Assembly (NCBI RefSeq): GCF_006345805.1
Contig: NC_043003.1
Location: forward strand, 110,050,001 to 110,114,000
DNA: 64,000 nt
Direction of reading: 5' to 3'
DNA from: Octopus sinensis
Taxonomy: Eukaryota
A program made the position numbers and the translations under genes. Positions 23,852 to 48,600 of the stretch are shown here, piece by piece. A model generated the notes under the pieces. The model saw nothing but the letters and a program-made list of their open reading frames with translations. It searched no databases and was not told the DNA's origin. Numbering within the stretch: position 1 is the first letter of the stretch; the number at the start of each line of letters is the position of its first letter.

Positions 23852-23905
<54 letters not shown>

Positions 23906-23987
23906 GGTCCCGGGTTGAGTCGGGGTTAACCACAGTAAATAAGGTGCTCAATACATAGCAGAGTAAATTAATTTATTTTATAGAAGG

Positions 23988-24038
23988 AGCTTCTACAGGA
24001 CTAGAACTGTTTCATTCAAATGAAATCATCAGGAAGCT
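23988..24038 (-). ncRNA. Type I hammerhead ribozyme candidate
   Basis: Minus strand agcttc-CTGATGA-tttcatttgaat-GAAA-cag(ttctagtc)ctg-TA-gaagct: 6-bp stem I, intact core, GUA cleavage triplet. Confidence 0.75.
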
Positions 24039-24227
24039 TGCTGTCAAAATAAGTTTTGGCATTTATACATTTAGGCAGATTTAATGGGGTGGTGGCGGGG
24101 GACTTTTTTGGGTAAGCAGGGCACAAACTGTCTTTCTTAGGGAGTGGTCAAAGGGATCAGTGATAAAGTAGATAAATGAATAAATAGAATAATAGAATAG
24201 AGTTTTAGGTAAATAAGAAGACTATCG

Positions 24228-24275
<48 letters not shown>

Positions 24276-25139
24276 CACATACATATACGCACACTTATAT
24301 ACACACATATATATACATACAAATACACATACACATACATGCCAACACGCAAGCACACGCACACATATGTCTACACATATATATATATATATATATAAAA
24401 AAATATACACACCCGTACACACCCACATATATATATATATGTATACACACATATATATACACACACATTATATACATATATATACACATACACATACATA
24501 TACATATATGCACATATATACATATACACATATACATACACATACACATACATACACCCACACGCATATATACATATATATACATATTTTTTCTCTCCTC
24601 GTCTTCCTCCCTTATTTTATTTTTATTTTTATTTTGACCGTCTTCAGAGTCATAAAAGGTATGACCTACCTACCCGCCGACACACATTTAGTGGCGCTGG
24701 AGTTGACGAACCCTAAAAATTCTTAGAACTCCCCAGGGTGTCAGCAGGCCTAAATGAAATCCATTTACCGCTCCCCTCTCCCTCCTTTCTATCTCTTACA
24801 AACGCAAACACTCACACACGCACACACATTCACACGCACACTCATACACATACACAAACACACATGTTCTCTCGCTCATTTCCTTCTCATCCACTCATAC
24901 TTATGTATATATCTCTCTCTACAAGCACACATATATATACACATGAGAAGGAAATGAGCGAGAGAACATGTGTGTTTGTGTATGTGTATGAGTGTGCGTG
25001 TGAGTGTGTGTGATCACTGATCCTTTTGACCACTCCCCTAAGAAAGACAGTTTGTGCCCTGCTTACCCAAAAAAGTCCCCCACCACCACCCCATTAAATC
25101 TGCCTAAATGTATAAATGCCAAAACTTATTTTGACAGCA

Positions 25140-25190
25140 AGCTTCCTGATGATTTCATTTGAATGAAACAATTCTAGTCCTGTAGAAGCT
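25140..25190 (+). ncRNA. Type I hammerhead ribozyme candidate (inverted partner)
   Basis: agcttc-CTGATGA-tttcatttgaat-GAAA-caa(ttctagtc)ctg-TA-gaagct; one stem III mismatch. Confidence 0.7.
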
Positions 25191-25214
25191 CCTTCTATAA
25201 AATAAATATATATA

Positions 25215-25259
<45 letters not shown>

Positions 25260-25298
25260 GTGTGTGTGTATATATATATATATACATATATATATGTG

Positions 25299-25330
<32 letters not shown>

Positions 25331-25921
25331 TTATATATATATATATGTGTGTGTGTATGTGTGTGTGCGTGTGTATGTATGTATGTGTATGTATGTATAT
25401 ATATATAAACATTTAAAATAGTGGTCTGTGCTCAACATTCTTAGCATGAAGTTACGAACGACAGTTTACAATTGGTTTGGAAATAAGCCATTTATTGATG
25501 GCAATATTTCAAGAGAAAAACAAAAATAACTGTAATTTTCTATATCATTTCTAAAACAGTAAAAGTTTGTGAACGTGTTGAGTATATAATTTAAAACTCA
25601 ACAATCTCATCTTATCTGTACTTACAGACTTTATTCACTAAACTAAATTTTGGCACTCTCACAATTGAACAATTTCCGAAATAATTTCTGATTTAAACAA
25701 AAATAAAAAGAAACTTAATTGAATTAAATAACGAATGCTGTTTGCTACTGTGTATGTTACTAATCTATCGAATATTAAAGGTTCCTGCTATTGTAGAAGT
25801 TAATAATTGCATTTGACCTTCTATCTTGGGCGGCTCTTTATTTTATCTGATTTATTTCATACCGCAATTTGTGAACAATAATGTCGTTCGATACAGGTTG
25901 ACAACGAGCAATCAGGCTATT

Positions 25922-36694: not shown

Positions 36695-37412
36695 GTACAT
36701 TTAAGTACAAGAGAGAACTATCTTTAATAGGTAATTTTTACATGCTACGAGAAGCAGTCAAAACGACCAAAACCACATTTAAGACCAATTTTCGAAGGGA
36801 ATGATAAATAAAAATAATTTTACCTTGTTATTTCTTATTTCTAGGTTTCGGACTATATCAGAGCAAATAAAATAATCTGCTAGGCGAATCCCCATGAGTA
36901 ACAGTGCCTTAACAATTAACATATAATTTAAAGACAAATAACACGCGTCTCATCATTATATATTATAATTTTTCAAAATTCACCGCGCAAGCGCAGTTTC
37001 AGTCTGCAGTAAGATGCGAAATGAACCGATCTGCGAAAAACTTAAATCACAATCGTAAAATTATATAGGGTGGCGAATCTTTTTCGAAATTTCATCACCA
37101 GTGGCCTAGCATGTATGAAAAGTCAACAGACAACATATTCTCAATATAAAATAGTGTACATTTTAACACAAAAAACTACCTTTAATAGGTAATTTGTACA
37201 TGCTAGAAGAAGCAGTCAAAACGACCAAAACCACATTTAAGAGCAATTTTCGAAGAGAATGAAAAATATATTTTACCTTGTTATTTCTTGCGGTTAAATA
37301 TAGGTTTCGGATTATTTTAGCAAATAAAATAATTTGCTAGGCGAATCCTCATCAGTAACCGTGCCTTAACAATTAACATTTAATTCAGGGACAAATAACA
37401 CGCGTCTCATCA
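36690..37412 (-). repeat. Tandem ~460-bp-period repeat (about 1.6 units) carrying hammerhead motifs (family H4; retrozyme or pLTR-like)
   Basis: 36692-36957 aligns with 37153-37413; an HHR motif is present in each copy. Confidence 0.85.
37291..37361 (-). ncRNA. Type I hammerhead candidate with extended stem II
   Basis: cggtta-CTGATGA-ggatt cgcc tagcaaat(tatttt)atttgcta aaat aatcc-GAAA-cctatatt-taaccg; stem III degraded. Confidence 0.65.
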
Positions 37413-38494
37413 TTTTTTTCCGAAGCTATAATAGAAGGAACAAAGGAGCATACTTGGCATATTTTGCTTTGTGAGTTCTATAAAGGCAACAACACAATGA
37501 AAAGTTCGAGGAATATTAATGCAGTATATGGAAATCGGACAAAAAGCGTAAGCCAGTGTCAATGGGGATTCCAGAAATTCCGAACTGGAAACTATAGCCT
37601 AGAAGACTATCGCCATCCTGGAAGATCTGTAGAGCTCGCCGAGGACGTCCTTCTAATCCCGGTGGAACACAATCTCATCATAAATGTTGAGGAACAAGCG
37701 GAGAATATTGGATTTGGTAATTCAACCATTCATAGACACCTGCGTGCCATTGGAAAAGTCAGCAAATTTGGTCAATGGATTCGTCACAAACTTTACGAGT
37801 CTAATCGCGCGCAGAGATTAGAGATCTTCCCTGTAACGTCTCATGAAAAGAATGAATCATGACGACAAATGGTTTCCTGTAAAAATATCAAGCGCAGAAG
37901 AGAGGGAAAGGCGAAACACCGGCACCCCAGGCTAATGGTCTAATCCACGTAAGGTGTTGTTATCAGTTTGCTGCGATATGAAATGTTTTGTCCACTTTGA
38001 ACTTTTAAACGCAAACTAAATCACATCAAAGTATATCTAGTGCGTGCAGCTTGAGCGACTTAAGTCAGCACTAGAAGAAAAGCGACCATCTTTATTTTCA
38101 AGAGGAAAGGTGTTCTTCCATCAGGATAATGCTCGGACAGATACAGCGAGGATGATATTCCAAAGGCTGGAGCAGCTTGAATGGCAAACGATGCCCCACC
38201 CACCATATTCGTCAGATATTGCTCCATCTGATTATCATTCATTCCATAGTCTTCAAAGTCATTTGGACGGAAAAAATTCTGAATTCTGTAGAGGAGGTCA
38301 GAAGAGTATTGGAGCTGTATTCATTGTCACGGACAAGGGAATCTTGGAAGAAGGGGCTTGCAAATCTAACAGATCAATGGAAGTCCCTTGTAGAAAATGA
38401 AAGAGAGCATATTTTAGATTAAAAAAGAACTTTGTTTATCTTAATTTTAAAAAGTAAAGTATAAAAAAACTGCATTATTTATGGGATGAACCAA
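37412..38494 (+). mobile_element. Mariner relic, copy 2 (same family as 4133; right TIR kept)
   Basis: Motifs GQWIRHKL, FHQDNAR, HPPYSSDIAPSDYH; ends aaaaaactgcattatttatgggatgaaccaa+TA, the reverse complement of the 4133 TIR. Confidence 0.93.
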
Positions 38495-43946: not shown

Positions 43947-44519
43947 CGATAATACTAAGATAAATGAAATGAAATGAGCCTACCTGTATGTTCATTCTAG
44001 AAATATATTTACTGTTGCAAAGTATAGTCATAATTTTCAGCTTCATAAACCATTGATCGTTAACATGATCGTTTGATATCTTTACTGCGTAATGTTGTTT
44101 ATGTTGTCTCCTATACACCCTGTGTTAATGAATCGCTTTTACAATACATAAATCGGCTTCAACGAAGTTGTTCTTTATTTAGAAATATCTTTCACGTAAC
44201 CATTCCAAAAATAAGATATCCTTGTTGTCCAACATTGGTCTATAGTGATTCATATTAACGATTCGATAAAGTAAATGTCTCAATTATATTAAAATCAATG
44301 AGCCATCTATGAACAATAGCTCATTCCTGTGTTGTTCTATTGCAAAGAATGACTTCAAACTGTCGAAACTATGATTAAGTAAGTTATTCAGCCTCCAAAC
44401 TTCAAAGAAGAATTATGCACAATTGAAAACATTCTCAAAAAGTATTATATTTCTAGTTAGTTATATCATCTAAATTAGTACTGGTTCTCAACTATACCCA
44501 CTATGAAGTGTAATCTGGC

Positions 44520-45120
44520 TCCGTCGAGGGTAGAATTGCAAATCAACGTCAAAATCCACAGTCAGTTACCATTTGGGCGGCCGTAGCAACCAGTAGAAGG
44601 TCTCCCTTCATTTTTGTGCACTCGTGTGTTAAGATTTTAACCCAACGATACATTAGCGGCATTCTGGAAGCTGAATTGTTTCCATGGGCGAATGAACACT
44701 TCCAAAGTACACCTTTGCGTCCCGACAGGACTCGGTACCATTCAACAGCTACAAACAGTCACAAAACTGGATTCAGAGAAACATTCCTTTGTTCAAAGGC
44801 AAGGATGCATGCTCCTCAAGAATCCACAGTCTCCACCCCTTTGACTTTTCTCTTTGGTCAATTTTGGTGAAGAGGGTCTTGAACAATCAACGTACTTCGC
44901 TGGACGCGCTGAAAGCAAAACTGCGCGAGACATTGGCTGAGATTCCGCAAGAACGGCTGCGTGCCGCGTGTGAAACATTCGCACCATGACTTAAGACTGT
45001 GATTCTAAGCAGTGGTAGTCGTATCAAATAAATGTGATAGTGTGATAACTGTGTTTGCTTTACCGTTATATTGCAACGCTTGGACCCAAATGCTGGTTGC
45101 GTTAATTTTAAGGCACCCTG
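44520..45120 (+). mobile_element. Tc1/mariner superfamily (maT/DD37D-like) transposase 3' half with right end
   Basis: PQSVTIWAAV...SPLIFVHSCVKI..RYISGILEAELFPWANEHF...LHPFDFSLWSILVKRV...SLDALKAKL; ends ggcaccctg+TA. Confidence 0.75.
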
Positions 45121-47825: not shown

Positions 47826-48600
47826 TCACTCTGACAATGGTTCCCAGCCAGGTGTGTTTTTAATTTTGGGGAACAGGTGATATATTGGAGCCAAATCAGA
47901 AGAATAGGGAGGATGATCAACCTGTCCAAATGCACTGTCACGTACAGCAGCCATTGAAACTAAGGACTTATGAGCTGGAACATTGACTTGATGAAACAAA
48001 ACCCGCTTCGTCAATTTTCTTAGGCGTTTGGTTTCGATAGACTTTAATGATTGCCTCAGCAAGTTGGTATTGAACTCTCTACAGGTGGTGCTGTCCTTCT
48101 GAATATAATCAATAAATACAAAGCATTTTGCATCCCCCAAATCTGAGGCCATAAGCTCTCCTGCAGATGAAACAAGCTTGGCCTTCTTTATGGCAGGTGA
48201 AGATGGGTGTTTTCATTGTATAGATTCTCGCTTCGTCTCTGGAACCAGCTGGATGTGCCCCAAACATTGTCAAATTTTCCCTTGGAATTATCGACCTGGT
48301 ACGCTTTTGATCAGGTGTCAGAAGACGTGGCCCTTAGCAGCAGGAACCTTCATCATACCAAGTCCATTCTACAGAATATTCTCGATTCTTTCACGGGAAA
48401 TGATAATAATAGTGAATATTTGATTTATAGATAATCACCTGCCATCCATCACTATATGGTGAGCAAGATCAAAATTTTCCTCGGTCGTGGTATTTGGAGG
48501 ATGCTTAGTCCTTGCTTCATGTTCAAGATTCCGTTTCCCTCCTAAATTCAGCTGTTCAGTTTTACACTTGATAAAGCTGTAGTCTCATTCCTAGGTATGA
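47826..48600 (-). mobile_element. Mariner transposase relic (irritans/Himar1-like), a different family from 4133
   Basis: KVMAS..DAK..FIDY, VLFHQVNVPAHKSLVSMAAV...DHPPYSSDLAP. Confidence 0.85.

Follow-up and report, generated by a model that had tools for sequence, protein, structure and literature searches.

A head-to-head pair of truncated Penelope-like element copies in Octopus sinensis, and the two 3' ends of its family

Architecture of the unit

The window analyzed here, a 64,000-nt stretch of Octopus sinensis DNA (NC_043003.1, positions 110,050,001 to 110,114,000 of the forward strand), contains a unit at 23902-25207 in which two inverted arms, each with a type I hammerhead motif, are embedded in a (TA)n tract. 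The parts of the unit, numbered from the first letter of the window, are as follows.

23855..23901, no strand: left (TA)n target tract, adjoining the unit
23902..24940 (5' end approximate), minus: copy 1, a 5'-truncated 3' UTR and terminal repeat of a Penelope-like element (PLE) with the long (tailed) 3' end at 23902, colinear with copies that reach upstream to the ORF
23902..23970, minus: 69-bp tail between the two 3' end sites of the family, in full-length copies the stretch directly upstream of the ORF start
23971..24164, minus: left arm, the stretch of copy 1 repeated in copy 2 (arm alignment)
23988..24038, minus: left type I hammerhead motif, with the majority sequence of the family; cut predicted at 23994/23993
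24230..24587, minus: microsatellite-rich stretch of the family 3' UTR (repeat content and match to other copies)
24591..24800, minus: non-repetitive block of the 3' UTR, earlier called unique DNA, present in other loci
24821..24890, minus: inner inverted repeat, arm inside copy 1 (inverted-repeat search)
24943..25012, plus: first piece of copy 2, 70 bp equal to 24890-24821, followed by a jump to the 24164 position (match to copy 1)
25013..25207, plus: right arm and second piece of copy 2, stopping at the short 3' end of the family (equivalent of 23971; arm alignment)
25140..25190, plus: right type I hammerhead motif, its helix III altered by a private G-to-A substitution at 25171; cut predicted at 25184/25185
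25208..25346, no strand: right (TA)n target tract, adjoining the unit

The inverted arms (23971-24164 and 25013-25207) are 97.9% identical over 195 bp, with three substitutions and one indel in a pairwise alignment, and each contains, facing outward, the type I order of AGCTTC, CTGATGA, stem II, GAAA, helix III, GTA and GAAGCT. The (TA)n tract is present on both sides, and the open frames over the unit are microsatellite read-throughs only. The initial annotation, which described near-identical arms of ~195 bp with outward-facing hammerheads in an ORF-less unit within (TA)n, was accurate in all these respects, but its view of ~200 bp in the middle as unique has to be withdrawn, because 14 of 29 other arm-picked loci contain the block at 24591-24800, at 78-91%. 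Moreover, the unit is asymmetric, as the left copy runs unbroken from 23902 to ~24940 and carries the 69-bp tail, whereas the right copy is tailless; within (TA)n, a minus-strand copy of 1.04 kb meets an inverted copy of 265 bp head-to-head. A second inverted repeat, absent from the initial annotation, pairs 70 bp at 24821-24890 with 24943-25012, and the whole of 24943-25207 is an inverted copy built of 24890-24821 followed by 24164-23971. A spliced intron was considered as the origin of the jump in copy 2 and was rejected, as the acceptor side lacks AG.

The insertion is young, as had been proposed, since the arms depart from the subfamily majority at only 4/269 and 1/195 positions. The four differences between the arms are all private changes and represent private decay, with the one at 25171 damaging the right hammerhead, and both arms carry a minority allele (10 of 43 copies) at 24155. 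The internal junction has no high-identity match elsewhere among 40 scored candidates; the sole match spanning it (86%) was dismissed as a microsatellite likeness and not a second copy of the unit. Contigs from four sequencing runs over 24865-25205, with the repeat-like part skipped, neither bridge nor contradict the junction.

Read-through RNA from the unit would be a long hairpin masking the ribozyme. In predicted folds of either strand, 50-51 of the 51 motif nucleotides are paired to the far arm, so the long duplex over the hammerhead that had been envisaged stands as a prediction, although the regulatory role attached to it does not: the duplex block is a by-product of a geometry common to most copies, with no sign of selection at the locus. 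The window copy is most likely inert, and the locus is an ordinary one, of the sort that insertion by this high-copy family usually leaves.

The parent family and its clade

A search of the 2.72-Gb genome with the left end of the unit (23902-24160) returned 1,920 candidates, of which 40 were scored. In 30 arm-picked loci, the match continues through the microsatellites and the middle block over variable lengths, and in several it goes beyond 24939, from which it follows that 23902-24940 is one 5'-truncated minus-strand copy. All 30 loci end at the equivalent of ~23902, where they adjoin a simple repeat. An upstream walk from 19 of them led, on the hammerhead strand of locus L031, to a frame with an RT thumb, a cysteine linker and GIY-YIG, with loci L034 and L041 colinear.

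The protein of this ORF has many near-identical genomic copies (150 scored). Among 88 ORF-picked loci, a set of best-scoring, divergent and N-terminal matches rather than a random draw and including one that stops at a contig end, 76 carry the arm in the orientation of the ORF and downstream of it, and in 39 an inverted arm lies upstream. In all 8 loci picked by the ORF N-terminus, the arm or tail is found directly upstream of the ORF, forming the classic pseudo-LTR, and in L143 the exact hammerhead of the window occurs on both sides of the ORF. The layout of the family is shown by these loci to be a terminal repeat, an RT/GIY-YIG ORF, a microsatellite-rich 3' UTR of ~3 kb and a terminal repeat with the hammerhead, spanning ~6 kb in total. 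This linkage bears out the attribution of the motif to PLE type I hammerheads in the initial annotation, and the genome-wide arm search suggested there for copy number, orientation and linkage has revealed a high-copy family, mostly in outward pairs and linked to a PLE ORF.

The family has the features of EN+ PLEs. In other copies, the window being without such an ORF, a single ORF with open frames of 480-690 aa contains the RT motifs LDIEDYY and YRDDG and then VYxC...YIGM. It also shows a partial tandem copy that forms a pseudo-LTR, truncation at the 5' end, an inverted copy that is likewise 5'-truncated, and a tail. Atlas neighbours of the ORF protein lie at 0.95-0.99, some of them with GIY-YIG. 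Pfam, run on four pieces of the family ORF, returned sub-threshold noise only and no RT or GIY-YIG match, and a comparison of the ORF with solved structures by sequence gave nothing under E 1.9.

By the motif definition of the Hydra clade (PMC8557442, section 11), the family has DKT instead of DKG, a CxCx5C linker (CNCPDKTTC), CxxC (CDLC) and CxH (CMH) near the C-terminus; its GIY-YIG domain is devoid of the CCHH cysteine pair and has a single cysteine between the GIY- and YIG-like motifs. The C-terminal GIY-YIG, these motifs, the preference for (TA)n targets and the type I hammerhead near the 3' end are shared with Hydra-1_Obim and Penelope-13_HM of that clade (PMC8557442). Assignment to Neptune or Nematis was ruled out by the linker and CCHH motifs. 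There are differences as well: RWR occupies the N-terminal place of the RWK of the Hydra clade, which is retained in a 41%-identical sister family, and the tail is 69 bp, compared with 30-40 bp in the Hydra clade (PMC8557442). The Hydra elements listed in that source are 1.1-3.0 kb, whereas the window family, at ~6 kb with a ~3 kb microsatellite-rich 3' UTR, exceeds the size below 3 kb that is general to the clade and not diagnostic. Hydra-1_Obim, as far as it is represented in PMC8557442, is a clear homologue, but its protein and hammerhead differ from those of the window family in a by-eye comparison. The family thus appears, from sequence motifs and references compared by eye, to be a Hydra-clade PLE with a long UTR, apparently undescribed. 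The sister family, a second one of the Hydra type (loci L151-L158, L161 and L162), has many near-identical uninterrupted ORFs of ~720 aa with RWK and DKT.

The hammerhead motif

C3 of the motif lies at 24032 on the minus strand and at 25146 on the plus strand, which places the predicted cuts at 23994/23993 and 25184/25185. Exact genome matches number 5,427 for a 30-nt stretch of the hammerhead and 0 for its reversed control, so the sequence is not due to chance. The core (CUGANGA, GAAA and UH) and three helices are all present, helix II being only 3 bp. Among 114 distinct copies, 0 of 37 core and stem positions vary in at least 5% of copies; the corresponding figures are 3 of 5 for N7 together with loop II and 42 of 132 for upstream positions, the variants counted being shared by descent and not independent events. 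The core is therefore conserved across genomic copies, as expected from the initial annotation, and the pattern of variation assigns U.U and UUC/GAA to helix II, with a loop of 4 nt.

The loop of helix III is palindromic, with a predicted self-duplex of -12.8 kcal/mol versus -1.4 as a hairpin, which suggests a dimer. The change at 25171 in the right arm breaks a helix III pair, and the predicted self-duplex falls to -4.8 kcal/mol; a loop III variant at the equivalent of 24005, carried by 6 of 113 copies, extends the palindrome to six bases and would favour dimerization. The active register of helix II has a predicted probability of ~0.02 in the ensemble.

Rfam gave 0 matches for the whole window at gathering score. 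With the threshold relaxed to E 10, the unit gave 71, none of them a hammerhead; most were models of miRNA hairpins that fell on the inner repeat and the microsatellites. The covariance-model search suggested in the initial annotation as a check has thus failed to recover the motif. MFE folding of the motifs lent no support, with z near 0. No compensatory base changes occur within the family, since invariant stems leave no covariation, and in the 41%-identical sister family a motif descriptor detected no hammerhead in 12 loci of 7 kb. With no Rfam match and z near 0, the ribozyme reading rests on motif and conservation, and the hammerhead in the parent element is likely to be a selected, weak ribozyme assisted by dimerization or protein.

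The minimal type I hammerheads of metazoan PLEs (PMC4209133) have the core, a palindromic loop 3 and a predicted dimer in common with the window motif, which differs from those described there in having no G10.1-C11.1 pair, a 3-bp helix II behind U.U, and a longer helix III (4 bp and an 8-nt loop). The lack of a G-C closing pair in stem II, noted earlier as a reservation, is real but not unusual, as the same U...U flank is found in 14 of 26 Hydra rows (File S2, PMC8557442).

Copies of the family end ~20 or ~90 nt past the predicted cut. The position of the inserted end is therefore not determined by cleavage, and on this ground hammerhead cleavage was rejected as the origin of the 3' ends. As both window copies continue beyond the predicted cut, the templates from which they were made had not been cleaved at that point. 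These ends are in line with the report that hammerhead cleavage is not needed for insertion (PMC11167929).

Paired copies and their integration

Among the first 100 exact hammerhead matches by position on contig C1, 70 form 35 pairs within 6 kb, and all 35 close pairs are outward-facing. Extrapolated from these 70 of 100 listed matches to the total of 5,427, the genome probably holds well over a thousand similar pairs, which, where transcribed, could supply the host with long double-stranded RNA. Apparent singles were revealed as pairs with a mismatched partner in at least 2 of 7 cases and, among 18 further tail or single loci covered over 2-7 kb, in 10, leaving 8 of the 18 without a partner in that range.

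The copies have two 3' ends. Of 111 copies, 64 end near 23902 (tailed) and 47 near 23971 (short), sites 69 bp apart, and the tail motif has 3,077 genome matches versus 5,427 for the hammerhead motif. A tailed end is combined with a short one in 12/12 partners of anchors picked by their tail (the window is among them, as are two that probably reflect a segmental duplication), in 34 of the 35 position-ordered pairs, a set with two local tandem duplicates and one repeat of locus L006 whose remaining pair is complex, and in 33 of 34 ORF-anchored pairs, the last of which ends ~10 nt past the short site without the full tail. Within the ORF-anchored set, 40 loci were sampled only after this had been predicted; they contain 19 pairs, of which 18 are discordant and none is concordant (p ~4e-6 for 18/18). 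Two outward tail pairs occur among the first 100 tail matches: L244, which truly has two tailed ends, and a second in which a further copy follows a tailed/short pair. In 18 of 34 ORF-anchored pairs the short end belongs to the long, ORF-bearing copy, and in the other 16 that copy carries the tail. That pairs hold one tailed and one short 3' end, and that either end can sit on the long copy, is new here and is a near-strict rule.

The inverted copies, the opposite-strand hammerheads and the U.U-flanked stem II in such elements are already known, and inverted 5'-truncated copies with opposite-strand hammerheads and a tail at one end have been published (PMC8557442, PMC4209133, PMC3846280). Penelope-13_HM has an inverted 5'-truncated copy with two hammerheads on opposite strands (PMC8557442), and dual hammerheads 100-700 bp apart on opposite strands have been noted in PMC4209133. 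How PLE inverted repeats form is named as an open question in PMC8557442. Neither a strict one-of-each rule nor twin priming in PLEs is stated in the literature searched; Arkhipova 2006, Evgen'ev and Arkhipova 2005 and Pyatkov 2004 may hold one.

The unit is best read, with a probability of about 0.8, as two 5'-truncated copies of the high-copy PLE joined head-to-head in (TA)n, likely in one insertion event with priming on both target strands. As to how this came about, twin priming is the probable route. The endonuclease would nick both strands of (TA)n, the two RTs would start at different RNA sites, one distal and one proximal, both cDNAs would stop early, and the two truncated ends would be joined, in the window with a 70-bp template jump. 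One-of-each ends with either end on the long copy favour twin priming from two RT start sites over fold-back. Against a single event of twin priming stand the two-tailed pair L244, the 8 of 18 tail or single loci without a partner in range, and the ORF-anchored pairs in which a copy other than the partner matches better. In 21 of these 34 pairs no copy matches better than the partner (median 0.99 vs 0.958), and in 13 another copy does.

In L1 twin priming, cDNAs primed from both target strands produce an inversion, and the products copy non-overlapping parts of the RNA. In the window family, unlike L1, a single terminal region would serve as template for both cDNAs, begun at two fixed start sites. 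A precedent exists in a different PLE, the PAc Poseidon element of Anolis (PMC11167929), in which two RT start sites flank and define the tail, both strands are extended, the target is AT-rich, a dimer is predicted and cleavage is not needed for insertion. In vitro, the start site of PAc Poseidon does not differ between strands, and the text of PMC11167929 examined contains no one-of-each rule for inverted pairs.

The inverted copy may instead have been produced by fold-back self-priming of one cDNA or on an antisense template, with the endonuclease cutting or resolving the short end at the AT-rich boundary of the tail. PMC3846280 has proposed that self-priming takes place on an antisense template, and PMC8557442 that the tail comes from resolution by the endonuclease. 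The high similarity of partners is compatible with fold-back, and it would also explain the short joins, as 20 of the 35 position-ordered pairs join within 50 nt, inside the 5' half of the hammerhead and often at the stem I palindrome. The 70-bp inner repeat of the window looks like fold-back, and fold-back-like pieces are likewise found at the junctions of L076 and L102. However, in the 18 of 34 ORF-anchored pairs with a short-ended long copy and a tailed short partner, the latter cannot be a fold-back copy of the former, because a tail is not copyable from a strand without one. Moreover, most ORF-anchored pairs are two differently truncated copies butt-joined, with truncation points usually kilobases apart. 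Fold-back is thus unlikely as the general origin of the pairs, but it may contribute at junctions such as the 70-bp piece of the window. With thousands of young copies to draw on, the qualitative 'tail often at one end' becomes a near-strict rule, one by which twin priming can be told apart from fold-back.

The initial annotation proposed a young non-autonomous cassette moved as a unit, with the arm duplex regulating self-cleavage. Young age and a predicted arm duplex that masks the motif agree with it. It is nevertheless largely refuted and now highly improbable: the inner junction has no second copy among the 40 scored candidates, many copies of the unit or direct tandem monomers were not found, junctions differ between independent pairs, the middle is UTR of an ORF-bearing family whose 3' end makes up the unit, and all four arm differences are private, including the one that damages the right hammerhead. 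Two independent insertions into one microsatellite, or an assembly fold-back artefact, are equally remote, for although the family targets (TA)n and has a (TA)n-rich UTR, and although no contig from the four runs spans the junction (repeat-like part skipped), independent insertions would not yield one-of-each ends, 35/35 outward close pairs or matched partners, a mirrored assembly would not have arms that differ at four places and end differently, and both arms carry the minority allele at 24155.

Twin priming may be more than an occasional event. We lean slightly towards the head-to-head pair being the standard integration product, in which an RT-endonuclease dimer would prime both strands, one subunit per fixed RNA start site, every insertion would be tailed on one side and short on the other, and both RTs would stall mainly at the hammerhead fold. 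If true, PLE inverted repeats and the 'optional' tail would be explained by one mechanism.

Several observations lie beside these results. Loci L076 and L102, on different contigs, have nearly identical junctions beside the RT region and opposite end types; their common junction is possibly that of a rearranged source copy. Tail-only insertions occur in L002 (143-212), where the piece stops at the short-end site, and in L248 (1588-1637 and 1718-1767). Fragments of further PLE families lie at 2300-3200 of L033 and 6500-7900 of L038 (oriented coordinates), and the one in L033 carries, between RT and endonuclease, an insert rich in asparagine that resembles those described in PMC3846280. Non-LTR retrozymes are also non-coding and PLE-related with a type I hammerhead, but are direct tandem repeats, whereas the window unit is an inverted pair from an ORF-bearing element (10.64898/2026.07.22.740005; PMC7229834). 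Locus L026, with three copies ~351 bp apart in a tandem repeat and a different type I hammerhead layout in each unit, looks like such a retrozyme. Other, unrelated type I hammerhead-like motifs, some without the G-C closing pair, are present in L042, L077, L097, L103, L113 and L150. Elsewhere in the window, broken transposase frames are found at 37377-38400, 44514-44870 and 47826-48212, which we take to be mariner/Tc1-like from their resemblance.
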